Assembly: GCA_017501465.1 (NCBI GenBank)
Contig: JAFVWY010000018.1
Coordinates: 146,748-210,747, forward strand
From: Bacilli bacterium
Lineage (GTDB): Bacteria; Bacillota_I; Bacilli_A; ML615J-28; CAG-313
DNA length: 64,000 nucleotides
Direction of reading: 5' to 3'
The stretch's first letter is position 1; every line of letters starts with the position of its first letter. Positions 13,078 to 32,036 of the stretch are shown here, piece by piece. The position numbers were made by a program, and so were the translations under genes. Under the pieces are notes generated by a model, which did no database searches, was not told where the DNA came from, and saw nothing but the letters and a program-made list of their open reading frames with translations.

Positions 13078-15582
13078 ATGAATACATATATAAGTTTATT
13101 TAGTAGTGCTGGGGTTGGTTGCTATGGTTTTAAAATGGAAAATTTTGAATGTATTGCAACAAATGAATTAATAGAGCGTAGATTAAATGTTCAAAAACAT
13201 AATAAGAAATGCAAATATGAATCAGGTTATATATGCGGTGATATTACTCAAGACGAAATAAAAGAATCACTTTACAAAGAAATTAAATTTTGGAAAACAA
13301 ATGAAAATTTAAAAAGAGTAGATGTTGTTATTGCTACTCCTCCTTGTCAAGGAATGTCAGTAGCAAATCATAAAAAGAATGATAAAGAGATTATAAGAAA
13401 TTCATTAGTTGTTGAGTCAATAAAAATAATTAAAGAAATTAATCCTAAATTTTTTATATTTGAAAATGTTCCTGCCTTTATGAAAACAATATGTACCGAT
13501 ATAGATGGGCAAGATAAATTAATTTCTGAAGCAATTGAAAATAATTTGGGAGAACTATATTCATATAGTGCTAAAGTAATAAATTTTAAGAACTTTGGAG
13601 CATGTTCTAGTAGATCAAGAACTGTTGTGATAGGTGTGTCAAAAGAATTGGTAGATGACATTGGGCCTGCCGAATTATATCCTATTTATAGAGAAGAAAC
13701 AACATTACGCGAAACAATAGGGCATTTAAAAAGTTTAACAATAATGGGTGAAATTGATGAAAATGATATATACCATGCTTTTAGAGAATACCCAGAACGT
13801 ATGAGAGCGTGGATAACAGATTTAAACGAGGGTGAATCTGCTTTTGATAATGTCGATGATAGTAAAAAACCACATCAAATTGTTGGTGGTAAAATGGTAA
13901 TTAATCAAAGGAAAAATGCTGATAAGTATACTAGAACTTATTGGGATAAAGTTGGACCATGTGTTCATACAAGAAACGATCAATTAGCAAGTCAAAATAC
14001 AATTCATCCATCAGATGATCGCGTGTTTAGTATAAGAGAATTAATGTTGATGATGACTGTTCCATATGAATTTAAATGGAGCGAGTATGATTTAGAATAT
14101 TTGAATAATCTTTCATTGAGTAAAAAGAAACAATACTTAAAAAAAGAAGAAATCAAAATTAGACAATCATTAGGTGAAGCCGTTCCAACGATTATATTTA
14201 AGGAGATTGCAGCAAACATTAAAATCAAATTAAATAAACCTAAAGTAAAAAAAAACACAATTAATCAATTGATAGAAAAATATCAGGATTTAAATACTGA
14301 AGATTTAATAGATTTTATAAAGAATAATCCACTAGACCTATCAATATCGACTCTAAGCAAAATAGCAGAAATGGCTAATACAAAAAGAACTGATAATGGT
14401 GCATTTTATACTAACAAAGAGTTAATCACGAAGATGATGGAAACACTTAAACTATCAGATAAAGAAGAGATTAATGTTTTAGAACCATCTGTTGGAGTTG
14501 GGAACTTTATACCATTTATTATTGATAAGTTTAATGATAAAAAATTAAATATAGATGTTATTGATGTAGATGAAAATAGTGTGAAAATTGCCAAGGTCTT
14601 AATGGATAAATATAACATTCCTAAAAATGTAGAGATTAATTATATTGTTGATGATTTCTTAACACACAAATTTGATAAACATTATGATTATATAATTGGA
14701 AATCCACCGTTTGTTAAAATAAAAGATGCAAAATTGTTAAAGCAATATAGAAAACATTGTAAAAATTCAGATGCTACAAATATATGCTCATACTTTTTAG
14801 ACAAAACTGTAGAATTAGCTGATTCAATTGCTATAGTATTTCCAAAGTTTATTTTAAATACACCAGAGTATATTAGAACTAGAGACTATTTAAAAAAATT
14901 GAATGTAGAATGTATTATTGATTTTGGTGAAAAGGGTTTTCCTGGGGTATTAATTGAAACAATTGCTCTTTTTATTAATCTAAATACTAAACCTAATAAT
15001 ACAAGAATAATTTCATTAACTAATAATATAGATATAATACAAAAGCAAAATTATATAATGGATTTTAAATTACCATACTGGATAATTTATAGAAACGAAT
15101 ATTTTGATATGGTATGGAAAAAATTAGAATTCAATGTATTTGATGTTTTTAGAGATAGACAAATCACAAATTCATTAATGAATGATAAAAAAGGTTATAG
15201 AGTAATAAAATCAAGAAATATTCAAAAAGATGGATCAATCGTTGATATACCTAACTATGACTCATATGTTGAGAAAGATATTGCAATAAATTTAGCGATA
15301 TATGATTATTTAGAACGAGATGATGTTTACTTGACACCGAATATGACTTATTATCCTAGAGTTATCAAAAAGCCAAGAGGTGTATTAGTTAATGGGTCAG
15401 TTGCAATATTAATTCCAAAAACTAACATTGAATTAACTAAAGAACAATGTGATTATTTCTCATCAGAAGAGTATTGGAACTTTTATGGAATAGCTCGTAA
15501 TTATCAAACTAGATCCCTTAATGTCGATTCATGTTCAGTATATTTCTATGGATTATTAAAACAAGGAGAAGAAAATGATTAA
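13078..15582 (+). CDS. Fused m5C + m6A DNA methyltransferase (M.HpyAV-like, Type IIS)
   Basis: N-half LFSSAGVG, TPPCQGMS, ENV, SSRSR, SLGEAVP; C-half GAFYT, EPSVGVGNF, IGNPPF. Confidence 0.9.
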   Translation: MNTYISLFSSAGVGCYGFKMENFECIATNELIERRLNVQKHNKKCKYESGYICGDITQDEIKESLYKEIKFWKTNENLKRVDVVIATPPCQGMSVANHKKNDKEIIRNSLVVESIKIIKEINPKFFIFENVPAFMKTICTDIDGQDKLISEAIENNLGELYSYSAKVINFKNFGACSSRSRTVVIGVSKELVDDIGPAELYPIYREETTLRETIGHLKSLTIMGEIDENDIYHAFREYPERMRAWITDLNEGESAFDNVDDSKKPHQIVGGKMVINQRKNADKYTRTYWDKVGPCVHTRNDQLASQNTIHPSDDRVFSIRELMLMMTVPYEFKWSEYDLEYLNNLSLSKKKQYLKKEEIKIRQSLGEAVPTIIFKEIAANIKIKLNKPKVKKNTINQLIEKYQDLNTEDLIDFIKNNPLDLSISTLSKIAEMANTKRTDNGAFYTNKELITKMMETLKLSDKEEINVLEPSVGVGNFIPFIIDKFNDKKLNIDVIDVDENSVKIAKVLMDKYNIPKNVEINYIVDDFLTHKFDKHYDYIIGNPPFVKIKDAKLLKQYRKHCKNSDATNICSYFLDKTVELADSIAIVFPKFILNTPEYIRTRDYLKKLNVECIIDFGEKGFPGVLIETIALFINLNTKPNNTRIISLTNNIDIIQKQNYIMDFKLPYWIIYRNEYFDMVWKKLEFNVFDVFRDRQITNSLMNDKKGYRVIKSRNIQKDGSIVDIPNYDSYVEKDIAINLAIYDYLERDDVYLTPNMTYYPRVIKKPRGVLVNGSVAILIPKTNIELTKEQCDYFSSEEYWNFYGIARNYQTRSLNVDSCSVYFYGLLKQGEEND

Positions 15583-16801
15583 TCAATCTCAAGTCGAACA
15601 ATTTATAAACTCGAAAAATTATGATATTAGAATAAGTGGAAATGCAAGATGGATCGATCAAAAATGTACTCCTGATGTTTTATGGTCAATTTCAGATTTT
15701 ATTTTAAATTATGTTGATAATGTAAATGAACAATTTACTGTTGCGGATATATGGACAAGTGATTATGCAAAATTAACAATTGCTGAGACTTATTCTAAAC
15801 CTGGAATTGATGAAAAAACTGCTGAGAATGAATATGATAAAGTTTTTTCTCAACCAATAAACTTATTATGCTATGCTGGGATATTAGAAGATATTAGCCT
15901 TACATCACGCCATCTATACAAAGTTATAAATAGAGAAATTTTAGAATATATTGCAAGAAATGATATTTTTTCCCTTAGGTTTTTACAATTGTACATTGAA
16001 AAAGTATTAAAAGACAGTGGTATTTACCATTATTTTCAAAGTTTTTTTGATAATCAAGATAATACACATTATAATCAGTTAAAAAACGTATTTATAGAAT
16101 TTTACCATATGTATACTCCTGTAAAAAAAGATCTTGAGCCCAAACGAATTTTTACAAAAGTAGTAAATCCATTGGCATTTAAATATTTAAAAAAAGGTTC
16201 TGAAAGAGGCAGGATGTCAAAAGACTTAATTAATAGGTCTGATATGATGTATAATAGAGATAATTTTAGAGATGTATATTTAGGTAAGCCTAAAGGCGTA
16301 ACTAGACAAGAATGGTTACAAAGTCATCCAGATATTGATATGAGAACAGGTTATTTTGAACAAATGATGAATAAAGCTAAAAAAGTTATTAAAGATAGCA
16401 CGATTAATTTTAGAAATAATGTTTCAGAATTAACTCAATTTAGTATAAATCATGATGATTATAATCCTGCAACACAGTTACATCATATTTTTCCTAAAAA
16501 TGAGTTTCCCGAAATTATGCACTATTTGGAAAATATGATTGCAATTACTCCAAACCAACATTATGGATTTGCACATCCAAACAATAATACAAATATAATT
16601 GATGTTGGAGCACAGAAAGAATTATTATTGGTGAAAGTTGAAAGTATACAATTAAATCTATCTAATAATGCAGAAGAAGAAATTTATGAATTTGATAATT
16701 TGCTATATGTTCTTTGTGTTGGATTAGAAGATTCGAATATAATGAAGATTAAAAACGGTGATTATATCGACGTTATACAAGCCATAAATGCTCATTATTA
16801 A
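15575..16801 (+). CDS. Type IIS restriction endonuclease with C-terminal HNH (HpyAV/Hin4II-like)
   Basis: ARWIDQKCTPDVL near the N-terminus; HHIFP..ENMIAITPNQH..AH HNH site; coupled to the dual methyltransferase. Confidence 0.75.
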   Translation: MINQSQVEQFINSKNYDIRISGNARWIDQKCTPDVLWSISDFILNYVDNVNEQFTVADIWTSDYAKLTIAETYSKPGIDEKTAENEYDKVFSQPINLLCYAGILEDISLTSRHLYKVINREILEYIARNDIFSLRFLQLYIEKVLKDSGIYHYFQSFFDNQDNTHYNQLKNVFIEFYHMYTPVKKDLEPKRIFTKVVNPLAFKYLKKGSERGRMSKDLINRSDMMYNRDNFRDVYLGKPKGVTRQEWLQSHPDIDMRTGYFEQMMNKAKKVIKDSTINFRNNVSELTQFSINHDDYNPATQLHHIFPKNEFPEIMHYLENMIAITPNQHYGFAHPNNNTNIIDVGAQKELLLVKVESIQLNLSNNAEEEIYEFDNLLYVLCVGLEDSNIMKIKNGDYIDVIQAINAHY

Positions 16802-17980: not shown

Positions 17981-18332
17981 TATATTTTAAATTCGATAGA
18001 GCAGTAAGATGTATATAAGATAATTTTAATAGTAGATCCTGTTACTTATATGGCTAGGTATAAGTATAGTTAAGAGCTGGAATATATTGTCCGGCTTTTT
18101 CAATTTATTGTAAAATAATGCATTCTTCAAAACCAATTTAGAATGTAGTATTAGACTTTAACTTCAAAATAGAGTAAATGCTAGGGATTTATAGAACAAA
18201 TAAATGGAAAAATTTTGGAATATAGTATTTTAAATTTGATAAAATATGACATAATTCTATTAGTTATTTGTTTAATGCTTTCAAATTTTCTAAAATTATG
18301 TTATAATAAATTATGAATAATTATTAAGATGA

Positions 18333-20780
18333 ATGGGTGTTATTATGAATTCATTAGAAAAAAATAATGTTAAATTACTTAATTTGGTCGAAAAGGGTCA
18401 TTCTTTTAGACAAATAAATAGGTTTTTAGAATCTAAGATTAATAATGATATTACTGAAGTGGATTTTTTTGAGATATTGGGAGATACCCCAATGATTCAT
18501 AAAATTGTCATTGACTTTAAAGACTTGGATTATTCTTATTATTCTATTTATTGTTTGTTATTTTTTGATATTAATATGATAACAGTTGAAAAATTAAAAC
18601 TTGATTATAACAATTTAAAAGATTTATCAATGCACATTGAATTATTAGAAGAAATGGGATATCAACAACGAACTATCGAAAAAATAGTTAATGCATTAAA
18701 TGAACTAGGTTTGAATTATTGTGGTGATGTTAAGAACACAGTATTAAGGATTATTACTGAGAAACAACCGATTCAAAATAATCAATTAAAGAATATAGTT
18801 TTAAATAGTTTCAACAACTTAAATGCAAAAATATATGATGAAGTTATTAATGATTTGATAACTGATGGGTTAATTATATTAACGATAAATGGATATAAAA
18901 TTCCCTTTGTTTCTATACATTCTTTTTTTGAAAAAAATAAAGATCAAAAAAATTTAATTGTTTATGAAAAGTTGCAGGGGAAAACTCTTCAAGAGATTGC
19001 TGATGAAAGAAATGTTTCTCGTGAGAGAATTAGACAAATTATTGAGAATACAATAATTAAATATCCTAAGTTTAAAGATGAAGATAAATATTTTTCAATT
19101 TTGTCAGAGTATTCTTTTTGCAAAGAAGATATGGAAATACTTGATTTTGATCTTTCATTGATGAATTATGTTTGTTTAAAACATAAATTCAAAGCAAATA
19201 AAAATGTGATAGATTATTTAATTGAAAATAATTTATATCAGTATGATTACTCAAAAAAATTGTTTTCAAAATATAATGTTGTCGTGATTGATAAAGAAAT
19301 AATTCAACTAAATTTTCTTTCACTGTTTAAAAAATATTTGTATGCAAAAAAAATACATAATTTTGATTTATTGCTAATTAAAGAAGATTTTAATCAGTAT
19401 GTTCTAGATAAAGGTATTGATTCTAAAGAATGTTTAATTGGAGACGATATTGAAGAAAAGTCTAGAAAATTAATAAATTCTGAAAACTTTGTAAACATAA
19501 AGAAATTTAATTTTATAGTTTTTGACATAAATGATTTATCTTATGAGTTCTTATCATTAACTAATGATTTTCTAGATTCATTCAGAGGTTATGGCTCTGT
19601 TGAGATTTTCTATAAAAATAATAAAAAATTATGTCAAAGCAATCATATTTTTAATGAAAATGATTTGTTTGGAATACTTAAACGTTTATATTTTGATGAG
19701 AAAAAAGATAAGATAATTTTTATACGCACTCCAATTATAATAGAAAAAGGTGTGGATAAAAATGCTTATATAGAAAATATGATATTAGATATGGATTTAC
19801 CATGTACAGTCGATGCTTATGTTAAATATGTCTGTGGTGTAACTTGTTTAAAATATAATACGTTTATGAGTTCATTTAGTCACATTATAAATAAATATAA
19901 AAATGTTGATGGTTTGATCACGTTAGATGATGATTATAGTTCTGAAGAAGAAGTTTGTTTAAGAAAATTATTAAATGATCAAATATGTATAGGCTATGAT
20001 TATTATAGTCTTGCAACAAAAAGATTATTTAAAGAGAGAAGTTATGTTTTTAATAATGCAAACATTCTTCGTAAATTTGGTTATATTTTAACTAATACAA
20101 CTATATATAAAGATATATATACGTCAAGAAAGTTAGCTGTTAAAGAAGCTTTAAAAAGAATGGGACATTTATTGAGTGAAGGAGAAGTAAATAAAATTTG
20201 TAACTCAGAATACTTGGTGTACAAATTATATGATGCTATTGATGAATGTTTTGTTATAAAGCTTTCAGATAATAAATATCTAAATAATGTTGCAAGAGGA
20301 CAACAACATATTTTCCAAAGTATGAAGCAAACTTTTGATTCTTTTTTTGAAAAAGATAAAATATATACGCTAGATAAAGTAATTAAATCATTATCATTTA
20401 GACAAATTATTGATAAAAATGAAGATTATAAGTGCATTTTGAATGTATTTAATGAAAGAGATGTAATCCGCTTTTTATTAAAAACAAATAGAAATTTTTC
20501 TTGTGTAGAATCATTTGGAAGTTTTGTTTTTTCTAAAGGCGAGTTATCATTAAAAAAGATTTTAGAAAAAATAATATCACAATATAAGGTTTTAGATAAG
20601 AATGAGTTTTATGAAATCTTATATGATGAATATGGAATAGATAAAAAATTTTCAAATAATGAACTTTCTGACTTTGGTTTTTATTGCCCATTCATGTCGG
20701 AAAAGATATATTTAAATGCGGAAATTTATGAAATAGATATGAAGGAGTATTTTAATGAGAGTATTGGATTTAACGATTAA
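18333..20780 (+). CDS. Large protein with internal sigma70 region-4-like HTH
   Basis: GKTLQEIADERNVSRERIRQI at ~aa 215-235; the rest is unrecognised; extended -10 TGTTATAAT at ~18299. Confidence 0.75.
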   Translation: MGVIMNSLEKNNVKLLNLVEKGHSFRQINRFLESKINNDITEVDFFEILGDTPMIHKIVIDFKDLDYSYYSIYCLLFFDINMITVEKLKLDYNNLKDLSMHIELLEEMGYQQRTIEKIVNALNELGLNYCGDVKNTVLRIITEKQPIQNNQLKNIVLNSFNNLNAKIYDEVINDLITDGLIILTINGYKIPFVSIHSFFEKNKDQKNLIVYEKLQGKTLQEIADERNVSRERIRQIIENTIIKYPKFKDEDKYFSILSEYSFCKEDMEILDFDLSLMNYVCLKHKFKANKNVIDYLIENNLYQYDYSKKLFSKYNVVVIDKEIIQLNFLSLFKKYLYAKKIHNFDLLLIKEDFNQYVLDKGIDSKECLIGDDIEEKSRKLINSENFVNIKKFNFIVFDINDLSYEFLSLTNDFLDSFRGYGSVEIFYKNNKKLCQSNHIFNENDLFGILKRLYFDEKKDKIIFIRTPIIIEKGVDKNAYIENMILDMDLPCTVDAYVKYVCGVTCLKYNTFMSSFSHIINKYKNVDGLITLDDDYSSEEEVCLRKLLNDQICIGYDYYSLATKRLFKERSYVFNNANILRKFGYILTNTTIYKDIYTSRKLAVKEALKRMGHLLSEGEVNKICNSEYLVYKLYDAIDECFVIKLSDNKYLNNVARGQQHIFQSMKQTFDSFFEKDKIYTLDKVIKSLSFRQIIDKNEDYKCILNVFNERDVIRFLLKTNRNFSCVESFGSFVFSKGELSLKKILEKIISQYKVLDKNEFYEILYDEYGIDKKFSNNELSDFGFYCPFMSEKIYLNAEIYEIDMKEYFNESIGFND

Positions 20781-22044
20781 TGAAAATTTAACAGATTGGG
20801 GAATTGAAAGAACTTCTAAGCAAAAAACAATTGTAATGAAAAACAGATCCATTGATTTTGATGTTTATAAAATCCCAATTGATTTATTATTATATAATTT
20901 AAATAATGGACGAATGTTCATGGAAGTTAGAAAAAAAGAAAATGAGGATAATATCGATTTATCAGAAATGAAAAAAATTGATCCTGCTAATTATAATAAC
21001 GAAATCGAGTCATTAATTTGGGAAACTTCAGAAGAAAGAAATGAATATACAAAAAAAGATATTCAAAAGTTCGGACAAATTGAACCAGGAGTAATTCTTG
21101 ATGATGGTACAGTTATCGATGGTAATAGACGTTTTACATGTTTAAGAAAATTACATAGAGAGTATCCAAATGATGAAAAGTTTTCTTATTTTCAGGCTGC
21201 TATAATAAGAGTTGATGGACAACAAATTACTAATAAGTTATTAAAGGAATATGAATTAAGAGTACAATTTGGTAATGATGAAAAAGTAGACTATAAACCA
21301 ATAAATAAGTTCATGAGCATATATGAGTTAATTGAAAAGAATAATGAAGATTTTGATTACACAACAGTAGGTGAGCTAATTAATAAGAAACCTGGTGAAA
21401 TTAATAAAATTTGTAAAACATGTAAGTTAGTTGATGAGTTTTTAGATTATATTGAAAAGCCTAGAGAATATCAAATCGCGGAAGAATATAACATTTATTG
21501 GCCTTTAGAACCACTAGTAACTTATTTTGATAATGATGGAAAGAATTTAACCCCAGTAGAACAACAAAAAAGAAAGTGTTTATATTTTGATTATTTACTA
21601 ACTTTAGATGTTGCTTTAATGACTCAAAATTTACGTGATAGTTTAATTAAGAAGGTATTTAAAAATAAAGTTGAAACTGAAAAACTTATAGATAAACATA
21701 ACCAAATTATTGGAGGTTTGATTTCAAATATAATAAATACTTCAACTAGTTCTGATGAATTCAATGAACAAATTAATTCATTACGTCATTCTGATGAAGC
21801 TGAAGAAGATAAAAAGGTTTATCAAGATACAGTTGGTAAATTAAATGATATTTCTCAACTAGATATGCCTATTAAAATTTGCAATAAAATTAATGATTTA
21901 ATTGATGACTTAAATATTCAACCTTTGATTTCTGCTAATAACGCTATAGCAGATAGTAAGCTTAAAGATATTCAACAACAATTAAAAGAAGCTTTAAATA
22001 AAATTGAAGTAAAATTAGTGGATATAGAAAAACATGAAAAATAA
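20755..22044 (+). CDS. ParB/Srx-like domain protein
   Basis: YKIPIDLLLYNLNNGR and GQIEPGVILDDGTVIDGNRRFTCL; C-terminal coiled coil; AAGGAG RBS. Confidence 0.75.
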   Translation: MRVLDLTINENLTDWGIERTSKQKTIVMKNRSIDFDVYKIPIDLLLYNLNNGRMFMEVRKKENEDNIDLSEMKKIDPANYNNEIESLIWETSEERNEYTKKDIQKFGQIEPGVILDDGTVIDGNRRFTCLRKLHREYPNDEKFSYFQAAIIRVDGQQITNKLLKEYELRVQFGNDEKVDYKPINKFMSIYELIEKNNEDFDYTTVGELINKKPGEINKICKTCKLVDEFLDYIEKPREYQIAEEYNIYWPLEPLVTYFDNDGKNLTPVEQQKRKCLYFDYLLTLDVALMTQNLRDSLIKKVFKNKVETEKLIDKHNQIIGGLISNIINTSTSSDEFNEQINSLRHSDEAEEDKKVYQDTVGKLNDISQLDMPIKICNKINDLIDDLNIQPLISANNAIADSKLKDIQQQLKEALNKIEVKLVDIEKHEK

Positions 22045-24550
22045 TTTATCAAAATATTTATTTGATACGTCATATTCAGATAAGAGTAAAGTACAACAAT
22101 TTTATAGTAATATATTAAAAGTTGCAAAAGTATATAAAAGAGTTTCTGCCTATTTTTCAACAGGAGTTTTCAATTATCTATCTAAAGGAATTGATGAGTT
22201 TATTAACAATGATGGATATATGCAATTAATTTTGTCCCCTGAGATAGATAGTGAAGTAGTTGATGAAATCAATAAAGGATATAACCTTAAAAGATTTAAT
22301 TTTATGCAATTTAATAAATTGTCAGGTACTGTCGAAAGCATATGTAAGCAAGAAAATATTTCTTTATTTGCGTACCTTATTGCAGTAGGTAAACTAGATA
22401 TTAAAATTGTCTTAAAAAAACAAGGTATTTTACATCATAAATTTGGTTGTGTTACAGATGGTGTTAATAATTTACTTTTTGTTGGTTCCAATAACACTAC
22501 TGTAAATGCAATGAAAAATAATGATGAGTCTTTTCAAGTTACGATAGATTGGGATTCACCTAGCAAAAGAGAATTGAAATCAATTGATGAGTTTAATAGA
22601 CTTTTTGATGATTATTGGAATAATAGTTTTGATGATTCCATAACTTTTGATTTACCTGATGAATATATTACACAGCTTATAAATGAAATTAATTATGATG
22701 AGGTTAAGAAAAAATTAAAAAAGAATACTGATTTTATAAGATTTGACTTAAATGAGAATTATAATATTGAGATAACTTCAAATATTAACTTAAAGGAAAT
22801 ATATTCGAATAGTAATTTATCTTTTTATAAAACTTTTGTAAGTTGTATTGATGAAAATAAAATACAATTTAGTGGTTTAAATAATTCTCAAGATATTTTT
22901 GAATTGTCAGAATATCTAAAAAGTATTGCTAATAAAATGGATATTAGTTTTTATTATACTCATAAGGCAAAAATATTTTTTGAATCAAGAATAAGAGACT
23001 ATGAATTAATGGCTGAAAAGGGAAATGAGATAAAATCATCTGATTATTTAAGTTCGGATTCATTCAAGTTTATAAAAAATCAAATCAACAGTATAGTTAA
23101 GCGTCCATTAGTTGATCAACAGATTGTCACTTGTACACATATTATTGAATTGGAGCGTTCTTTAAATTTTTCAGTTCCGGGGAGTGGCAAAACTGCAACA
23201 ATTTTAGGTGCTTTTGAATACTTGAATGGTTTACCTTATGTAGATAAAAGATATGTAAATAAGTTAATTGTTTTTGGGCCTATTAATTGTATAAAGTCTT
23301 GGAAAGATGAATATAGTTTTGTCTCATATAAATCTGATGAACATGCTCCACTAGATATTACTAGTTGTGATAGTAGAAATGATAAATTGGATGTTTTACG
23401 TCATGATTTTAAAACATCTAGAATAATTTTGATTAATTATGAAATGATACCTTTTTTAGAACCAATTTTAAAAGAATTGATTAATAATAAATCTTTTGTT
23501 GTATTTGATGAGATACATAGAATTAAAAATATTAAAAGCCCTAAATATGCAAGTTTAAATAATATAATTAAGGATGTGAGATATAGAGTTGCTTTAACAG
23601 GAACACCACTTCCTAATGGCTATATTGATTTATATAATATCATTTCTTTACTTCATGATGATTATACTGAAAAATATTTTGGGATGTACAAAAGTAGTTT
23701 GTCAAAGTATGATAGTGATTTTAAGAAGGTAGGAATTCAAAATAGTGATTTAAATAAAATGTTATATCCATTTTACATAAGAGTCACAAAGAAAGATTTA
23801 AATGTGCCTAATCCTGAACCTGATCATTTGGTATATATTTATGGTAATAAGAATGAGATTGAATTATTTGACAAGATTAAAAAGACTAATTCAAGCTCAT
23901 TTGACAGAATTATAAAACAAGTGCAAATTGGATGTATCCCTCATAAAATAGATGATAGTTTAAGCCCTAATCTTGATATTAATCAGGATAACTATCATGA
24001 ATATATGACTAGTAAATTATATGCTTTTATAAGAAACATATTAAACAATAAAAGAAAAAGTGTTGTGTGGTGTATATATGTTGAAACTATTAAAATTGTA
24101 TCAAAAATTTTGGAATATAATGGCTTTAAAGTTAAAGTGATATATGGTGAAACCCCACAAATAGAAAGAGATAAGATTATAAATCAATTTAATTATAGTG
24201 ATAATGTTGATATAATAGTGACAAATCCAGCAACACTAGCGGAGTCTGTTTCATTACATAAGAGTTGCCATGATGCTCATTATTTGGAACTAGATTATAA
24301 TCTATATCAATATTTGCAATCTAGAGATAGAATACATAGACTTGGTTTGAAGCCAGAGGATAAAACAAATTATTATATTTATGTTAATATTTATGGAGAA
24401 CGTAATACAAATTCTATTGATTTAAAAATATATGAAGCATTAAATAAGAAAAGAGATAGGATGATATCGTCTATTGAAAAAGGTGAATTTGTATTTGATA
24501 TTGATAAAGAGTTAGATTACAAGTTATTAGATTATGAGGTGAATGACTAA
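22034..24550 (+). CDS. PLD-family nuclease fused to SNF2-like SF2 helicase
   Basis: SAYFS, HHKFGCVTD and GSNN (HKD-type PLD); NFSVPGSGKT, DEIH, LTGTP and QSRDRIHRLG helicase motifs. Confidence 0.85.
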   Translation: MKNNLSKYLFDTSYSDKSKVQQFYSNILKVAKVYKRVSAYFSTGVFNYLSKGIDEFINNDGYMQLILSPEIDSEVVDEINKGYNLKRFNFMQFNKLSGTVESICKQENISLFAYLIAVGKLDIKIVLKKQGILHHKFGCVTDGVNNLLFVGSNNTTVNAMKNNDESFQVTIDWDSPSKRELKSIDEFNRLFDDYWNNSFDDSITFDLPDEYITQLINEINYDEVKKKLKKNTDFIRFDLNENYNIEITSNINLKEIYSNSNLSFYKTFVSCIDENKIQFSGLNNSQDIFELSEYLKSIANKMDISFYYTHKAKIFFESRIRDYELMAEKGNEIKSSDYLSSDSFKFIKNQINSIVKRPLVDQQIVTCTHIIELERSLNFSVPGSGKTATILGAFEYLNGLPYVDKRYVNKLIVFGPINCIKSWKDEYSFVSYKSDEHAPLDITSCDSRNDKLDVLRHDFKTSRIILINYEMIPFLEPILKELINNKSFVVFDEIHRIKNIKSPKYASLNNIIKDVRYRVALTGTPLPNGYIDLYNIISLLHDDYTEKYFGMYKSSLSKYDSDFKKVGIQNSDLNKMLYPFYIRVTKKDLNVPNPEPDHLVYIYGNKNEIELFDKIKKTNSSSFDRIIKQVQIGCIPHKIDDSLSPNLDINQDNYHEYMTSKLYAFIRNILNNKRKSVVWCIYVETIKIVSKILEYNGFKVKVIYGETPQIERDKIINQFNYSDNVDIIVTNPATLAESVSLHKSCHDAHYLELDYNLYQYLQSRDRIHRLGLKPEDKTNYYIYVNIYGERNTNSIDLKIYEALNKKRDRMISSIEKGEFVFDIDKELDYKLLDYEVND

Positions 24551-25428
24551 TGAAACCTTTCTTAAAATGGGCTGGTGGTAAAAGACAATTAATACCATAT
24601 ATTAAAAAGTATATAAATAAGAAAAAGATTGGTAAACACAAATACTATGAACCTTTTTTAGGTGGAGGGTCTATTTTCTTTGATTTGGCTCATGAAAACA
24701 GTAGCATAAATGATTTAAATGAAGAAATTATAAACTGTTATAATGTTATTAAAGAAAATCCAGATGAGTTGATAGATCTACTAAAACTACATGCCGAAGC
24801 ACATTGTAAAGAGTATTATTATAAAATAAGAAGTTTAGATAGACAAGAAGATTATAAATTCATGGATAATATTACTAAAGCGGCAAGGACTATATATTTA
24901 AACAGAACTTGCTTCAATGGCTTATACAGAGTGAATAAAAATGGTTTTTTTAATACACCTATTGGTAGATATGTTAATCCTTTAATTTGTGACGAAGAAA
25001 ATATAAATGAAATTTCTTATTTTTTAAATAATAATGATGTAACTATTATGTCTAAAAGTTTCGAATTTGCAGTTGAAAAATGTGAAAAAGGTGATTGGAT
25101 ATATTTTGATCCACCATACGATTATGAAAATAGCGGTTTTGTCGGATATGTTAAAGAAGGTTTTTCTCATGAAGATTTAGTTAAACTTAAAGAAGTGTGT
25201 GATGAACTAGTAAAAAAGGGTTGTTATGTTCTTGTATCAAATAACGATACTGAATTTGTTCGACAAACATTTAATAGTAGTGATTATGAAATTATTTATT
25301 CTACTAAAACTATAAAAGCAAACAGAAATATTAATAGTAAAGCTAGTAAAAGAAAAAAAGTTGATGAGGTGTTAATATATGGACATAAGCGAAAAAAACA
25401 AAAAAATTCCATTTCCTCAAGCAAATGA
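24550..25428 (+). CDS. dam: Dam/DpnM-family m6A methyltransferase (probably GATC)
   Basis: KPFLKWAGGK, YYEPFLGGG, CFNGLYRVN, DPPY. Confidence 0.92.
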   Translation: MKPFLKWAGGKRQLIPYIKKYINKKKIGKHKYYEPFLGGGSIFFDLAHENSSINDLNEEIINCYNVIKENPDELIDLLKLHAEAHCKEYYYKIRSLDRQEDYKFMDNITKAARTIYLNRTCFNGLYRVNKNGFFNTPIGRYVNPLICDEENINEISYFLNNNDVTIMSKSFEFAVEKCEKGDWIYFDPPYDYENSGFVGYVKEGFSHEDLVKLKEVCDELVKKGCYVLVSNNDTEFVRQTFNSSDYEIIYSTKTIKANRNINSKASKRKKVDEVLIYGHKRKKQKNSISSSK

Positions 25429-25849
25429 TTTTGATAAGATAATTAAAATTGTTTTAATAGACAACCCAGATAATTTATCTAATAAATCAATATTAATGAA
25501 ATTGTTAGATCTAGGAACAGAAAGACAAGTATCATATTATATGAGCGCATGTGAGTTTTTAGATATTATAGATTCAAATGGTAATTTAAGTGATTTTGCC
25601 AAATTGATAAGAGAAAAATGTTTTGAAACACAAATATTAATGTTAGCTAACAAGATTATTTCAAAGCCTGTGTTTGGGGAAGTCTTTTTAATGAGATATT
25701 ATAATTGCATAGATTTCCAAACTGAGGAAATTTCGCAATTGATTAGTGATATCTATAATATTAAAAATTCTGATGTCTGTAATAGAAGAGCTAGCACTGT
25801 GAAAAGCTGGATTAAATGGATTGAAGAGCAAAAAGAAATATTTATTTAA
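25379..25849 (+). CDS. Small helical (putative winged-helix) protein of the FPQA(D/N) family
   Basis: IPFPQANDFDKI, RQVSYYMSACEFL, RRASTVKSWIKW; I recall this as the C-terminal domain of Dam-associated putative restriction enzymes; GAGGTG RBS lies inside dam. Confidence 0.6.
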   Translation: MDISEKNKKIPFPQANDFDKIIKIVLIDNPDNLSNKSILMKLLDLGTERQVSYYMSACEFLDIIDSNGNLSDFAKLIREKCFETQILMLANKIISKPVFGEVFLMRYYNCIDFQTEEISQLISDIYNIKNSDVCNRRASTVKSWIKWIEEQKEIFI

Positions 25850-25892: not shown

Positions 25893-25916
25893 TAATTCAA
25901 AGAAAGAAATATAAAT

Positions 25917-26495
25917 ATGCTAACACATAAAGACATAGAAAAGATAAGAAAAATGTATTATGAACAACATTATACTGTAACTGAAATAACTAGAATATTG
26001 AAGGTATCTAGAAATGTTTGTTACAAGTATTTAAGGTTTGTTAACTTTAATGCTTATATTAAAGAGAATAAAAGAGCATATTACTTAGATCAATATAAAG
26101 AAGTATTGTTATCATTAATAAAAAAAAGATAGTTTACAACATCATAAACAAAGATATACTGGTATATGTGCATATGAATATTTAGTAGATAACTATCCCG
26201 ATTTTAAATATGCTAAAATTTCAACAATTAAATACTTTACAAAACTTAAAAAAAGAATTCTATTATGAACATAATGTATTTTACCATTAGATCATAAAGT
26301 AGGAGAAGCACAAGTAGATTTAGGAGAATGTTCTTTCATAGAAAAAGGTGAAAAAGTATATGGTAAATATTTAGTTATGACATTCACTCATTCTATTGTT
26401 TCTTATATATAGTTATTAAAGAATAAAAATGCTGAAAGTATTGTGTTAGCTATAAGACGTATTTTTGAATATTTAAATGGTATTCCACAAGAACT
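25917..26495 (+). mobile_element. istA: IS21-family transposase pseudogene (IstA relic)
   Basis: N-terminal HTH IRKMYYEQ..ITRILKVSRNVCYKYL; frameshifted LPLDHKVGEAQVDFG..YLVMTFTHS and IFEYLNGIPQE. Confidence 0.8.
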
Positions 26496-26770
26496 AATGG
26501 ATTGTTTTTCTATTGTTGCGTCTATGAAACGATATTCTCAACTCGAATTATTCAATTTAGTTATGAAGTTTGCTGACGCTATAAATGTTGAAATAACAAA
26601 GGATGCCACTTTGTGTTTGGTGAAATATGCTGATGGTTCATATCGTAATATGGAAAATATTATCAAAAGGGCAACAGACTTTGCATTAATAAGATATAAT
26701 AGTATCATAGATTCTAATATTGCTAATACTGTTATTAAAACACTTGATTTGTTTAGAATAGCAAGCATAA
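26490..26770 (+). pseudogene. RuvB-like AAA+ lid fragment
   Basis: LMDCFSIVASMKRYSQLEL..VEITKDA..ADGSYRNMENIIKRATDFA resembles RuvB LRDRFGI..LEFY..EL..I...A..RGTPR.A..LL.RVRDFA. Confidence 0.55.
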
Positions 26771-26802
26771 AAGATAATTTATACGATAGAAAGGATAATT
26801 TT

Positions 26803-27375
26803 ATGAAACAAAGAATTTTATTTTGTAATATTGCATATATGAGACATTATGATACAAATTACCCTGAGATACCAGAGAATGGTGGAAAATATGTACAGGA
26901 TGAAAAGGATGCTTTAGAAAAACATAATTTTGAAAAATGTTCTGATGGATATTATAGAGGTTTTGTCGAAACTAAACATTCTAAAGGATATAAATTAGGC
27001 ATTAAATTAAATGAGTATAAATCTCTAAGAATTGAAAATATTGATAATTCTTATGTTAAACAAATGTCCATTCCCAATGTATTGGTTGTATTTTGTGCAA
27101 AAAAGAAAGATGTGGGCACAGTGATAGTGGGTTGGTATAAAGGTGCTACTGTTTATAGAAGACGACCTGAGTATAATGGTAGAGCTTTTAATATAATGAC
27201 CAGAATAGAAGATGGTGTTTTATTAGAAGAAGAAGAGAGAACATTTCTCGTACCAAGAGTTACAAAAGAGGTTAAAATTGGATTTGGTCAATCTAATGTA
27301 TGGTATGCAAAAAAGCCAGAACATCAATTTTTAATTACTAAGGTAGTTGAATACGTTAATAATTATAAAAAATAA
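26803..27375 (+). CDS. Stand-alone domain usually found N-terminal to HNH nucleases
   Basis: AGAAAGGA RBS before MKQRILFCNIAYM; GGKYV, EKHNF, VIVGWYKGATVYR, GFGQSNVWY; no nuclease domain follows. Confidence 0.65.
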   Translation: MKQRILFCNIAYMRHYDTNYPEIPENGGKYVQDEKDALEKHNFEKCSDGYYRGFVETKHSKGYKLGIKLNEYKSLRIENIDNSYVKQMSIPNVLVVFCAKKKDVGTVIVGWYKGATVYRRRPEYNGRAFNIMTRIEDGVLLEEEERTFLVPRVTKEVKIGFGQSNVWYAKKPEHQFLITKVVEYVNNYKK

Positions 27376-27483: not shown

Positions 27484-28512
27484 TTGAATATGAATACAGC
27501 ATACAATAATAAAATATTAAACATAATGATAAATCAAGCTAAAACTATAAAACATAAAAATATTTTAATGAACTGCAACTTAGAAATTAAATGGTATAGA
27601 ATGAATGGTAATTTTAATGAATGTATTGCGGTTTTATCTTGCATTGAAGATGATTATTATAAAGTAATTAATAATGATGAAAAAAAGAAATTAGAAGATT
27701 TACTTTGTAAGTCTATTCCAGAATCTGATTCAATTTGTATTATTGAATTTCTACTTAATATTATTGACGATAGTGTTGCCTTTGAAGTAAACCTAGATAC
27801 TGTGGAATTTGATATCTATAAAATAGAGAGATATATTAAATTTAAAAAGTTTCTAGAACTTGTAGAGTTATTCCCTTTATTAACATTGCGTTATAATGGT
27901 ATTATAAAGAAATGGAAAAATATTTTACCAGATTTTTTAAAGAATGTTAAAGGGGAATGGGATTACGAAAAAATACAACACCATTCATTAGAATTAATCA
28001 AAATATTAAAGGAGCATTGTTTATCATTTCAAACTCGTGAGCAAAATTTTACAGAAAGTAAACAGAAGAATAAACAAAATGATAAAGAAAAAGAGTATGA
28101 TGTTTTTATTTCTCATGCAAATCTAGATAAAGTTGATTATGTTAGCGATTTGAAAAAAAGCATCAGTAAATTAAATGTTAATGTTTTTTATGATGCAGAT
28201 GAAATTGAATGGGGAGATGAATGGGAAAAAAGAATATTAGACGGAATAGAAAAATCAAGATTTGCAATTTTAGTCTTATCAAAAAACTTTTTTGGCAGAA
28301 CTTGGACAGAAATAGAACTTTCTTCATTTTTAAGTAAACAAAACTCAAACAAACAAAAAATTATTCTACCACTTTTATATGGTGTAACACTAGATGAAGT
28401 ATTAATGAAATACCCATTTTTATCAAAAATTCACTTCATCGACAGCGAAAAGTACTCAATAGATGAAGTGACAATTCTATTTGCTCGCCAACTAATTAAA
28501 GATTTAAAATAG
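27484..28512 (+). CDS. TIR domain protein (TIR_2, TirS/TcpC-like C-terminal TIR)
   Basis: YDVFISHA, VFYD..EIEWGD, SRFAILVLSKNFF, WTEIEL with the catalytic Glu. Confidence 0.9.
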   Translation: MNMNTAYNNKILNIMINQAKTIKHKNILMNCNLEIKWYRMNGNFNECIAVLSCIEDDYYKVINNDEKKKLEDLLCKSIPESDSICIIEFLLNIIDDSVAFEVNLDTVEFDIYKIERYIKFKKFLELVELFPLLTLRYNGIIKKWKNILPDFLKNVKGEWDYEKIQHHSLELIKILKEHCLSFQTREQNFTESKQKNKQNDKEKEYDVFISHANLDKVDYVSDLKKSISKLNVNVFYDADEIEWGDEWEKRILDGIEKSRFAILVLSKNFFGRTWTEIELSSFLSKQNSNKQKIILPLLYGVTLDEVLMKYPFLSKIHFIDSEKYSIDEVTILFARQLIKDLK

Positions 28513-29174: not shown

Positions 29175-32036
29175 ATGAAAGAAGTTATTAAAAATTATCA
29201 ATTAAATAATTTATGTGATGAATTAATTAATATTATTAAAAATAGAAATGATATTTTTAAACCATTAAATATCATTGTTCCAAATATTAAAACTGAAAAA
29301 TGGATTAAATCATATTGGTTAAAACATCAAAATGATGTTTTAATGAATGTTAAATTTACATTAATTGATAATGCATTATTAAGTTTTATAGATTCTAAAA
29401 AAACATATAAACTTCTAAACAAAGAAGAGTTAAAATCATTAATTATAAAATTTTTAGTAAATGACAATAATATCAATTTTCCTAAAGAAATAACTGAATA
29501 TTTATATAATGATAATAAAATAAACCAAATAAAAATATATGATCTAGCAAATCAACTTGCAAATTTATACACTGAATATGATAACGATCAAATTGATATT
29601 ACTGGTTGGCAAAAGGAATTATATGATGTTATATTGAATGATGCTACAAATTATAATTTAACAACTTTAAGTTATTTATTTAATAATGAAAAGTATGTAA
29701 AAAAATCAAATGACATTACATATTTCTTTGGATTTATAGAATTTACTTCTTTACAAGAAAAAATCATCGATAAATATTCAAAATATTCAGATATCAAATT
29801 ATTCTTACTCGAAGAAGATATTAATTATAATAAAATATTTAAACTAACATCTGCACCTTCAAAACTTAGAGAAGTAGAATCAGTTCATACAAAAATATGT
29901 GAATTACTTAAAGATCCTTCTAATAAATATGATGATTTCTTAGTTCTTGCGACAAATATTAGTGAATATGAAAATGTAATACCTAGAGTATTTAACCAAG
30001 ATAATGTTAATTTCCCAAACATTCCTTATAAAATAAATAATAAAAAAAGAATAGAAACAAATCTATCCCTTGGTTTAAAGAAACTATTTGAAATATTAAA
30101 TAAAAAATTTTATACAAGAGCAGATTTTATATCTATTATAAATAATAAAGATGTTCAAAAATGTAAAGGAATATCAGAAGATGATGTAATTAATTTTGCA
30201 AATTCAATAGTGAAAATGAATGCATATAGAAATGGCACTAATAGAGATGACTGGGAATACGCTAAAAAAAGAGTACTACTTTCAAAATTATCAAGTATAA
30301 ATGATATTAATAATAATATAATAGAACTTTCAAATAAAAGTTATCTCCCATATACAAGTATAGAATTTACTGATGAATCAATTGTTAAATTTATCAATAT
30401 CATTGATGATTTAGACAGTTGGTTGAAAATTTCTAATAATATTCAATTTCTAAACAATGAAAACTTACTATTAATAAAAAACGAACTAATAAAATGGTTT
30501 TCAATTAAAGATGATAATGATTTTGAGACAAATAGTTATTTTAAAAACATCCTAAGTGATATTGATTTTTGGATACGTATTAATATATCAAATAATGATA
30601 TTCCATTAAATACATTATTTTATATGTTAATCGATTCAAGTACAGAAACAAAATTAAAAGGAACAGATTATTTTACAAAAGGAATAACATTTACGGATTT
30701 TGATGAAAATACAATACTTTCAACAAAACATATATTTTTCTTAAATGCAAGTTCAACAGAACTTCCTAAACAAAAAATTAAAAGTGAACTTGATTTAAGA
30801 AAAGAACCATTTGATGATAAAAAAACAAAAAGAGCATTCTCAATTCAATATCAAAATGCAGTATCATGTTTTAATATAAGCTATATTGATAAAGATTTAA
30901 AAACTGATGAAGATTTCTATCCGTCAACTTATATATTAAATTTAAAAAATAAATCAAAATTTGAAGAGGAAAAAATTACTCTAGATGAAATAAGAACGTG
31001 GTCAAAACTTTATACAAAAAAAGAATACAAAGATAAAAACTATTATACTAGTTTATTAGATATTGATGATGAAACATCTACTATAAGTGAAATATTTAAT
31101 TTATCAGAAAAAACAAAAAAAATAAAAATAAAAGAAATGGCTGAATACTTAGAAGAACCACTTATGAGTAAATCAAAACGTTTATTTGGAAAAGACTTTT
31201 CACTAGAAGAAGACTTTAAAGAAGAATTTGAACCTTTTACAATTGACAACATTTCAAAAAGTGTTTTAGTTAAAAAAATATGTATTGATATACTTTCAAA
31301 CAAAAAAGAGATAACTAGTATCGAAGAATACGATGAATTAAGAGAAAGATTCAATTTAGAACACAAACTACCTAATATAAATGAGACATTCAATGAAGAA
31401 TCTTTCAAAAAAGTTTTCTTAGAAAGTATAGAAATAATAAATTATATTAAAGAAAAAACAAATGAAAACTACGATGTAGTAAAACTACCTGATATATCAT
31501 TATATAATAATGAAACAGAATGGACATTAACATGTGATCAAGAATTATGTATATCTATAAATGAAAGAACAAGAAGATATTTCCAATTTAAGAAAAATTT
31601 AATAAAAGCAAATGAAATTGATTTTTTATATTTATATGTTTTCTCATTAATGGATGTATCAAACTTAAGTGATAATACATATGAAATTATATTAGATAGA
31701 GGTGTAGAAACAAGTTTTAATATAACCCCTTATAAAGCAAAAGAATTGTTAAATAATATTTATGATAAAATGAATGATTACAGTGATAATGTATATTTAC
31801 CTTTAAGAATTTTTGACAATGAAAAAATCACAAGTTTACAAGGTTTAATAGAAAACTTAAAAAAACTTCAAGGAAGCCCTTGGACATATTTTGATGATAA
31901 AAATCTATTTGACTATGAAACACAACTGGGTTATACTAATGAAAACTTCAACGAAAAATACAAACAAAAAAGAAAAGAACATATTGATCTAATAGAATAT
32001 ATGGAACAAATAGAAGAAAGTGAGGATGAAAAATAA
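29175..32036 (+). CDS. recC: Exodeoxyribonuclease V gamma subunit-like
   Basis: PLNIIVPN, LANQLANLYTEYD, WQKELY, SKLREVESVH, DDFLVLA, IPY; first gene of a recC-recB-recD run. Confidence 0.8.
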   Translation: MKEVIKNYQLNNLCDELINIIKNRNDIFKPLNIIVPNIKTEKWIKSYWLKHQNDVLMNVKFTLIDNALLSFIDSKKTYKLLNKEELKSLIIKFLVNDNNINFPKEITEYLYNDNKINQIKIYDLANQLANLYTEYDNDQIDITGWQKELYDVILNDATNYNLTTLSYLFNNEKYVKKSNDITYFFGFIEFTSLQEKIIDKYSKYSDIKLFLLEEDINYNKIFKLTSAPSKLREVESVHTKICELLKDPSNKYDDFLVLATNISEYENVIPRVFNQDNVNFPNIPYKINNKKRIETNLSLGLKKLFEILNKKFYTRADFISIINNKDVQKCKGISEDDVINFANSIVKMNAYRNGTNRDDWEYAKKRVLLSKLSSINDINNNIIELSNKSYLPYTSIEFTDESIVKFINIIDDLDSWLKISNNIQFLNNENLLLIKNELIKWFSIKDDNDFETNSYFKNILSDIDFWIRINISNNDIPLNTLFYMLIDSSTETKLKGTDYFTKGITFTDFDENTILSTKHIFFLNASSTELPKQKIKSELDLRKEPFDDKKTKRAFSIQYQNAVSCFNISYIDKDLKTDEDFYPSTYILNLKNKSKFEEEKITLDEIRTWSKLYTKKEYKDKNYYTSLLDIDDETSTISEIFNLSEKTKKIKIKEMAEYLEEPLMSKSKRLFGKDFSLEEDFKEEFEPFTIDNISKSVLVKKICIDILSNKKEITSIEEYDELRERFNLEHKLPNINETFNEESFKKVFLESIEIINYIKEKTNENYDVVKLPDISLYNNETEWTLTCDQELCISINERTRRYFQFKKNLIKANEIDFLYLYVFSLMDVSNLSDNTYEIILDRGVETSFNITPYKAKELLNNIYDKMNDYSDNVYLPLRIFDNEKITSLQGLIENLKKLQGSPWTYFDDKNLFDYETQLGYTNENFNEKYKQKRKEHIDLIEYMEQIEESEDEK

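Follow-up and report, generated by a model that had tools for sequence, protein, structure and literature searches.

The window analysed here, a stretch of 64,000 nucleotides (nt) from a Bacilli bacterium (assembly GCA_017501465.1, contig JAFVWY010000018.1), carries at positions 18333-25849 an operon of five genes, named A to E below, that is probably a methylation-gated, restriction-like anti-phage system of the AbiR type fused to its own modification module. Genes A, B and C appear to constitute an AbiR-type triad, D encodes a predicted Dam-family methylase, and E encodes a small protein of the family DUF7226. The genes and the signals that delimit them are as follows.

18072-18099, + strand: terminator-like hairpin closing the upstream unit, the left boundary
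18280-18307, + strand: promoter-like site (TTCAAA, 16 nt, TATAAT, with a TG-extended -10), 26 nt 5' of A
18333-20780, + strand: A, AbiRa-like, open reading frame (ORF) of 815 amino acids (aa)
20755-22044, + strand: B, AbiRb-like, ORF of 429 aa
22034-24550, + strand: C, AbiRc-like, ORF of 838 aa
24550-25428, + strand: D, Dam-family (DpnM-like) N6-adenine methyltransferase, presumably acting on GATC, ORF of 292 aa
25379-25849, + strand: E, stand-alone DUF7226 protein, ORF of 156 aa
25866-25888, + strand: terminator-like hairpin 17 nt 3' of E, the right boundary

AbiR, from plasmid pKR223 of Lactococcus lactis, comprises three genes (PMC13064643). AbiRa resembles a sigma70 factor, AbiRb resembles ParB (5K5D), and AbiRc couples an N-terminal domain like that of ATP-dependent restriction endonucleases (7CLG) with a Snf2-like helicase (PMC13064643). 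The system impairs the replication of phage DNA, was originally assigned to abortive infection (PMC13064643), and is reported to need the methylase of the LlaKR2I restriction-modification (R-M) system, without which it is toxic (PMC13064643; PMC2661086). LlaKR2I, Sau3AI and MutH are related, GATC-cutting enzymes (PMC4471560). A sigma70-like helix-turn-helix (HTH) protein, a ParB-like protein and a nuclease-Snf2 helicase are likewise encoded, in the same order, by A, B and C. The original prediction regarded the operon as a candidate undescribed defence system; for the A-B-C core this has to be given up, as the core matches the described AbiR in architecture and gene order (PMC13064643). We infer an AbiR-type triad from this match, the comparison having been made on described architecture and on context.

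The five ORFs are intact and each overlaps the next, as had been claimed, by 26 (A/B), 11 (B/C), 1 (C/D) and 50 nt (D/E). The window has about 25% G+C, and every long ORF lies on the + strand. Given this composition, the reading of TGA as tryptophan (table 4) was considered; it lengthens almost no ORF in the window and was therefore rejected, and table 11 was kept. The proposal of one promoter and one terminator holds in that both sites were found, and terminator-like sites are enriched in the window (5 versus 1.0 +/- 1.0 expected from shuffles). Promoter-like sites, in contrast, are no commoner than in shuffles (91 versus 99.8 +/- 10.3), so that the site at 18280-18307 is consistent with the proposal without being evidence for it.

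Protein A has a single Pfam match, Sigma70_r4 at residues 205-240 (E-value 7.8e-7). Its AlphaFold2 model (predicted local distance difference test, pLDDT, 90.7; predicted template modelling score, pTM, 0.55) strings together small units of helical and winged-helix type, among which VIA-align recognised a Rad51-type helix-hairpin-helix (HhH) domain (68-127, Z 8.1), followed by a winged helix (127-192, Z about 10) and SigF region 4 (193-246, Z 8.1). Foldseek returned only weak tandem winged-helix matches (UFL1, SelB and Pol III subunits), with no PDB match at E-value <= 0.001, and neither Pfam nor structure comparison revealed an enzymatic domain. According to the model, A is a long array of DNA-binding modules, namely an HhH-like domain, winged helices and a sigma region 4 HTH. 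Among 12 A proteins scanned, Sigma70_r4 is present in 10, repeats of the RNA polymerase alpha C-terminal domain (alpha-CTD; RNA_pol_A_CTD, 2-4 copies) in 8, and a MutH domain fused to the N-terminus in one (locus L010); the window's A has no Pfam-detectable alpha-CTD. The protein evolves fast, its relatives being 14-40% identical to the window's A, and relatives on Bacillota plasmids are named 'sigma factor-like helix-turn-helix DNA-binding protein' in RefSeq.

Protein B gave no Pfam, NCBIfam, PADLOC or PDB sequence match, and PDB sequence searches with B and with its profile yielded nothing useful. In the ESM Atlas only 'hypothetical protein' or 'ParB' clusters were matched, and the Pfam family ddrB-ParB matched weakly in 6 of 15 B relatives (best E-value 7.7e-4). 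The AlphaFold2 model (pLDDT 91.2) consists of a ParB/Noc/KorB-type N-domain, an HTH domain and C-terminal long helices. It matches Noc, ParB, KorB and Spo0J: Foldseek paired it with Noc (7nfu, E-value 1.5e-4), and VIA-align with ParB-CDP (6sdk, Z 10.9, root-mean-square deviation 1.6 over 95 residues), KorB (8qa9, Z 10.6 over 196 residues) and Noc (7nfu, Z 10.5 over 203 residues), sulfiredoxins scoring lower (Z 6-8). As modelled, B has a true ParB/Noc/KorB fold, with a GxxR box in the N-domain and an HTH domain after it, and its originally predicted ParB-like identity is supported by both methods. The motif DGNRR lies at 122-126; G123, N124, R125 and R126 are invariant, and DGNRRFTC is invariant in an alignment across 68 relatives. 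The GNRR box (from 123) presumably occupies the position where ParB has GERR, and the invariant residues N48/N51/R53, GNRR and E167/Q171 fall at what we take to be the positions of the three CTP-binding motifs of ParB, which is a lead rather than a test.

Protein C contains the Pfam domains PLDc_2 (N-terminal, with the HKD motif of phospholipase D, PLD), SNF2-rel_dom and Helicase_C. Its first approximately 230 residues match the PbeA models of PADLOC (E-value 5.4e-51), and its helicase part matches ZorD, DpdE and DrmD models, DrmD weakly and in the C-terminal helicase part (E-value 8.8e-7). The motifs HHKFGCVTD (134), GSNN (151), GSGKT (383), DEIH (492) and QSRDRIHRLG (762) are present. In 35 long relatives, the PLD residues H134 and K136 are kept throughout and D142 in 33, and G151, S152 and N154 of GSxN are kept in all 35. 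C can thus be read from its motifs as a PLD nuclease with intact conserved catalytic residues joined to an SNF2 motor, in agreement with the motif assignment made at the outset.

Protein D matches TIGR00571 (E-value 4.1e-76) and, in the PDB, DpnM (2dpm, E-value 3.8e-76) more closely than Escherichia coli Dam (E-value 2e-37). It carries FLGGG at 36 and DPPY at 187 and is the sole Dam homologue in the 1.56 Mb genome. DpnM is the GATC N6-methyladenine (m6A) methylase of the DpnII system, and D is presumably a DpnM-like Dam that methylates adenine in GATC. The claim of a Dam methyltransferase was thus well placed, and the catalytic motifs quoted in the original prediction were all found in B, C and D.

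Protein E has only one domain, DUF7226 (PF23871, E-value 2.7e-18), and aligns with model positions 272-425 of 426 of the PADLOC model REase_II PDLC03513. It has the full length of stand-alone DUF7226 families and, in an alignment, the invariant motifs PFPQA, RQxxYY and RRASTV that are common to all DUF7226 forms, and is therefore not a decayed fragment. Its ESM Atlas matches are DUF7226 or AAA_assoc_C clusters; PDB sequence searches with a DUF7226 restriction enzyme and with the DUF7226 profile gave nothing useful, and a literature search on DUF7226 found no paper. Longer DUF7226 proteins are of three kinds: Dam-DUF7226 fusions of about 437 aa (P0121, P0127), DUF6996-DUF6997-DUF7226 proteins of about 420 aa, and proteins of 581 aa. 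The idea that this small protein, first noticed by its FPQA motif, reads sites has gained indirect support only, in that the same domain occurs elsewhere in fusions with Dam or with a type II restriction enzyme.

The spread of the family was followed mainly through B, of which 653 relatives with nearly constant length were found at E-value <= 0.001 among 8000 scored, and which forms 489 clusters at 50% identity (E-value <= 1e-30). In a scan of species-representative genomes 208 relatives turned up, of which the 80 best loci form the set of genome loci used here. Where B has 395-445 aa (60 genome loci), an ORF of at least 780 aa ends at the start of B in 51 and an ORF of at least 600 aa starts at its end in 54. 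By tblastn, the window's C matches 61 of the 80 genome loci and its A matches 42, always around the HTH. The A-B-C triad recurs across Bacillota and beyond. All five genes stand in the same order in 7 of the 80 genome loci and in 10 of 80 metagenome loci from the DUF7226 scan described below, a co-occurrence far above chance; the five-gene genome loci come from metagenome-assembled genomes labelled Bacilli, Mollicutes, Acholeplasmataceae, Eubacteriales, Bacteroidales and Onthovivens. This recurrence answers the gene-neighbourhood check suggested in the original prediction and supports one conserved unit of defence type.

B occurs in 3 of 31 related genomes, its own genome included, a patchy distribution as is typical of defence genes. 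By tblastn its relatives were found in 67 plasmid records of PLSDB, commonly on plasmids of Enterococcus and other Bacillota, and in only 4 of 50,697 phage records. Three family forms can be distinguished, in which C has PLD and about 850 aa, C lacks PLD and has about 620 aa, or B bears an N-terminal Swt1-like HEPN domain and is followed by A. The HEPN-bearing B-like proteins (550-600 aa) were seen in L061 (7443-12082) and in L032, L043, L047, L049, L058, L063 and L065, and a 165-member cluster of the ESM Atlas has the same fusion. In L061, the HEPN match has an E-value of 3.3e-22, and the A-like protein (alpha-CTD repeats, sigma region 4) comes after B, in reversed order, with no helicase seen. 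Another arrangement was observed on the Lactococcus lactis plasmid NZ_CP087603.1 (L081, 2092-10106), where a methyltransferase and a 'type III restriction-modification system endonuclease' lie just 5' of a B-like gene ('ParB N-terminal domain-containing protein') that is accompanied by a helicase of 620 aa lacking PLD; the usual place of A is taken by a type III Res-like protein. The same pairing is found on Enterococcus faecium plasmids.

The Dam and DUF7226 genes have a wider distribution of their own. Metagenome contigs scanned for DUF7226 yielded 509 relatives, of which the 80 best loci were sorted by context. Restriction-enzyme fusions account for 36 of them, with Dam just upstream in 30, a cut by the contig end in 5 and no Dam in 1. 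In 14 loci a protein of 750-800 aa with Hjc-like and DndB (ParB-superfamily) regions is followed by Dam and then DUF7226, as exemplified by L113 (3893-7438) with 13 similar metagenome loci; this set was not found in literature searches. The full A-B-C-Dam-DUF7226 form makes up the 10 loci already mentioned, and 9 loci have three other genes, one of them DUF6339, before a Dam-DUF7226 fusion. The latter comprise L121 (2490-14035) and 8 similar loci, in which the fusion is preceded by a 650-664 aa protein, a 304 aa protein and the DUF6339 protein; the first two, scanned from L121 and L130, matched no family, and in L121 the fusion is followed by a 1064-aa PLD-SNF2 helicase and a 1098-aa ORF. Dam and DUF7226 only were found in 9 loci, 6 of these cut by the contig end, and 2 loci were too short to judge. 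Overall, Dam adjoins or is fused to DUF7226 in 72 of the 80 loci, 7 of the other 8 being cut by the contig end. DUF7226, a domain linked to Dam, is combined with different nucleases, twice together with ParB-superfamily proteins and twice together with PLD-SNF2 helicases. Since the invariant motifs are common to all forms and the contexts vary, E is no stray fragment and is not peculiar to this operon.

The presence of PLD in C goes with a methylase nearby. Of 34 loci whose C bears PLD, 28 have a methylase no more than 4.5 kb away (21 C5, 7 Dam), and so do 23 of the 24 with at least 3 kb on both sides; where C lacks PLD, this holds for 2 of 21 loci and for 1 of the 10 with flanks of at least 3 kb. 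The 21 include L008, in which a long C runs off the end of the contig. Among the 80 genome loci, 25 have a C5 methylase and 22 a member of a Sau3AI-like family no farther than 4.5 kb from A-B-C, the latter assigned by a PDB match to Sau3AI (E-value 1.4e-16), a PADLOC REase_II match and the RefSeq name 'MutH/Sau3AI family endonuclease'. These loci repeat the pKR223 neighbourhood of a 5-methylcytosine (m5C) methylase with a Sau3AI/LlaKR2I-like enzyme, which is the usual company of PLD-bearing relatives, and the window's clade has Dam and DUF7226 instead. In a quick IQ-TREE tree of B, the Dam clade of the window is a separate long branch of 9 rows (SH-aLRT 100), the m5C-linked forms branch at scattered positions at the base of the remaining tree, and most PLD-less and HEPN forms gather in a single derived clade of 32 rows. 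The B proteins of the window's clade are only 23-29% identical to those of m5C-linked loci. The methylation-based self/non-self logic that had been proposed fits both the AbiR literature and the observed association of methylases with PLD. In the 1.56 Mb genome, depletion among the 16 four-base palindromes is strongest for GATC (2485 versus 4256 expected, observed/expected 0.58), which fits long exposure to GATC-directed restriction and proves nothing; CATG is the second most depleted (observed/expected 0.61).

On this basis the following course of action may be envisaged. D would methylate the GATC sites of the host, and A and B would load or assemble on DNA, with B as a nucleotide-gated clamp or platform. 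C would then translocate and cut DNA without the mark, so that unmodified incoming or replicating phage DNA would be destroyed and the host spared. E might provide recognition of GATC or of its methylation state, or might couple the methylase to the nuclease machine; it would fill the place of the Sau3AI/LlaKR2I-like protein of m5C-type relatives, the one that is fused to A in L010.

Several points weigh against the methylation-gated AbiR-type reading. The homology to AbiR is judged by architecture and genomic context. PADLOC-DB 2.0.0, which may hold no AbiR models, gave no family for A or B from the window or from Bacillus, Enterococcus and Lactococcus loci; the DefenseFinder wiki holds AbiRa, AbiRb and AbiRc (PMC13712998). 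A profile search with the m5C-linked B clade returned no AbiR-named protein among the best 120 of 3098 matches, and tblastn of B from the window and from L012 against PLSDB hit one Lactococcus record, which is a different variant, the type III-linked one of L081. A cluster look-up of Enterococcus A, B and C gave no accession tying them to the AFDB model named in the review (PMC13064643). Dam and DUF7226 also occur with other partners and so could act alone. In 19 of the 21 loci with a short C there is neither PLD nor a nearby methylase, and other forms have a HEPN domain on B instead; the A-B core in itself therefore needs no methylation. As these forms fall mostly in one clade, the PLD-methylase link rests on few independent events and should not be taken as a statistic. 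The marks also differ between clades (m5C versus m6A), so that no single conserved A-B-C reader explains both. Expression is only hinted at, by short metatranscriptome contigs from two runs of two studies (shares 0.07 and 0.05) that agree with parts of B, C, D and E to within 0-3 mismatches in the pieces listed, because such libraries can hold DNA; operon stretches that no contig covers carry no information.

In an unlikely alternative, the operon would consist of two independent units, an AbiR-like A-B-C with a trigger unrelated to methylation and a separate Dam-DUF7226 pair, which would be either what is left of a type II R-M system, or a reduced form of one, or else an orphan methylase and its regulator. 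DUF7226 does end a type II restriction enzyme family, which Dam precedes in 30 of 36 loci (5 of the other 6 being cut by the contig end), Dam with DUF7226 is found beside other genes without A-B-C in at least 26 of the 80 metagenome loci, and A-B-C relatives without any methylase exist. The operon is in this sense composite, and the original prediction of one five-gene system stands for the conserved unit but not for a module exclusive to it. Against two units, D and E follow C by an overlap or a short gap in every locus of the clade with enough sequence (7 genome, 10 metagenome), A to E share one promoter-like site and one terminator, E is full-length with all invariant motifs kept, PLD-bearing relatives are nearly always accompanied by a methylase, and AbiR itself is reported to need its methylase (PMC13064643, PMC2661086).

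Two further alternatives concern the nature of A and B. In one, which we consider quite improbable, the operon would be a mimicry-based abortive-infection sensor, in which A mimics those parts of RNA polymerase that bind DNA, the alpha C-terminal domains and sigma region 4. Phage proteins taking over transcription would engage A and so release the ParB-like protein and the nuclease-helicase, and methylation would only limit collateral damage. The alpha-CTD repeats and Sigma70_r4 of most A proteins scanned (8 and 10 of 12), the fast evolution of A, a variety of effectors reminiscent of sensor-effector systems (PLD-SNF2, SNF2 alone, HEPN fused to B) and the first classification of AbiR (PMC13064643) speak in its favour; yet alpha-CTD and sigma region 4 are ordinary DNA-binding modules, the former is not Pfam-detectable in the window's A, and there is no known phage trigger. 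Moreover, the reported toxicity of AbiR without its methylase suggests that the discriminator is DNA marks and not phage proteins (PMC13064643, PMC2661086). The other alternative, a module for plasmid or chromosome maintenance or for transcription, made of a ParB partition protein, a sigma-like regulator and a remodelling helicase, would follow from the database names of B relatives, often 'ParB/RepB/Spo0J family partition protein', and from their frequency on plasmids. It is very hard to reconcile with an operon that has no ParA partner and a conserved PLD nuclease fused to a helicase, with the links to R-M, Vsr and McrBC-like genes, with the patchy distribution, and with the experimental defence phenotype of lactococcal AbiR, which has the same architecture (PMC13064643).

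A broader reading is, taken as a whole, unlikely. AbiR-type systems would then represent a restriction principle of their own, with a fast-evolving RNA-polymerase look-alike (A), a ParB-type clamp and a portable DUF7226 reader. With its alpha-CTD repeats, sigma region 4 and winged-helix array, A would sense either unmarked DNA or phage proteins that seize transcription, and would load a nucleotide-switched ParB-type clamp that carries the PLD-SNF2 nuclease along DNA. DUF7226 would read GATC methylation and license at least four unrelated nuclease machines, that is, the type II enzyme, the Hjc/DndB-like protein, AbiR, and the DUF6339-containing set with its PLD-SNF2 helicase.

The operon lies in a defence island with R-M, HNH and TIR genes. 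Upstream, 13078-16801 encodes an 834-aa fusion of a C5 cytosine methylase (PF00145, E-value 3.7e-35) with an Eco57I/N6-type adenine methylase domain, and an overlapping 408-aa ORF without family match, in which an HNH-like H..N..H stretch was seen by eye near the C-terminus; this is probably another R-M system of the same island. Directly around the operon are short frames in different phases with partial or sub-threshold Pfam matches, namely a NUDIX piece (E-value 5.8e-4), PD-(D/E)XK (E-value 0.061), a transposase/resolvase HTH (E-value 1.3e-4) and a RuvB lid domain without ATPase (E-value 2.8e-7), which makes the predicted decay on both sides plausible but weakly shown. On the right, 25896-27375 contains frames in three phases with the transposase/resolvase-type HTH and then a frame of 310-320 aa with the RuvB AAA-lid at its start, no ATPase domain and an unassigned C-terminal half; it looks like the remains of an insertion element and another gene. 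Next, a 342-aa TIR-domain protein is encoded at 27484-28512 (PADLOC candidate PDC-S66, E-value 4.5e-41; ThsB-like models, E-value 2.6e-21), with no ThsA-like neighbour seen, and RecC-, RecB- and RecD-like genes follow at 29175-37343. In L026 (12011-16727) and related Bacillaceae, McrBC-like genes (an AspBHI N-terminal domain with AAA_5, then DUF2357-PDDEXK_7) and a Vsr endonuclease adjoin the m5C-linked A-B-C, which fits a context of cytosine methylation in defence islands.

The protection of lactococci by AbiR was shown more than 20 years ago, and according to a 2026 review the action of its three proteins is still unclear (PMC13064643). The window and its relatives suggest a widespread family, unnamed by PADLOC-DB 2.0.0 and with B commonly labelled a partition protein, in which a GATC methylase of one chemistry or the other accompanies the nuclease-bearing forms. 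The Dam-DUF7226 variant is compact and self-contained, could be transferred to a laboratory host, and offers a model for this old unsolved system, in which protection by the methylase, a ParB-type switch in immunity and DUF7226 as a methylation reader become directly testable. With its own GATC methylase and small partner, it may hold clues as to how AbiR-type systems tell self from foreign DNA. It also carries a warning for annotation, since a 'ParB/Spo0J partition protein' or 'sigma factor-like protein' in such operons is probably a defence gene.

Compared with known systems, B resembles ParB, Noc and KorB, which are CTP-dependent DNA clamps, in its N-domain and in the HTH domain after it; unlike them, it has no ParA partner or known loading site, differs in its C-terminal long helices and is encoded with a nuclease-helicase. 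The type II R-M systems of Dam and DUF6996-DUF6997-DUF7226 (PADLOC REase_II PDLC03513) resemble the window in having Dam followed by a DUF7226-bearing gene with the same invariant motifs, whereas E lacks the DUF6996-DUF6997 part of the full-length enzymes (about 420 aa), and the nuclease role would fall to the PLD-SNF2 protein and its two partners. PbeABCD (CxC-ABC-DndE) and BREX-related type 2 systems use the same kind of effector, an HKD nuclease with a superfamily 2 (SF2)/SNF2 helicase, often with a modification gene attached (PMC10853773, PMC12839542), but in the window the partners are a ParB-like and a winged-helix array protein; neither the CxC ABC ATPase (PbeC), the DndE-like PbeD, the DUF499 ATPase and DUF3780 nor the BREX features PglZ/BrxC, or DUF499 ATPase with DUF3780 (as defined in PMC12839542), were found in the operon by Pfam or PADLOC. 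DISARM class 1 likewise has an SNF2 helicase, a PLD nuclease and a methylase in one locus, with the difference that PLD and SNF2 are fused in C; neither the five proteins nor those flanking ORFs that were scanned matched DrmA or DrmB (DUF1998). The stated absence of DrmA/DrmB, PglZ/BrxC and Dnd genes accordingly agrees with the Pfam and PADLOC scans, and the PADLOC check that had been suggested produced PbeA-like and ZorD-like matches for C and REase_II for E, and no family for A and B. No description of a Dam/DUF7226-linked AbiR variant, of the breadth of the family or of the PLD-methylase link was found in the literature, supplements and subscription papers lying outside the search. The core itself is of a known kind, AbiR. 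AbiR and the window's operon are both tied to a GATC methylase (PMC13064643, PMC4471560). No MutH/Sau3AI-like gene was found in the window by Pfam and family scans, unlike in pKR223, and, unlike AbiR, the operon has a DpnM-like m6A Dam as its methylase, within the operon itself, and DUF7226 added to it.

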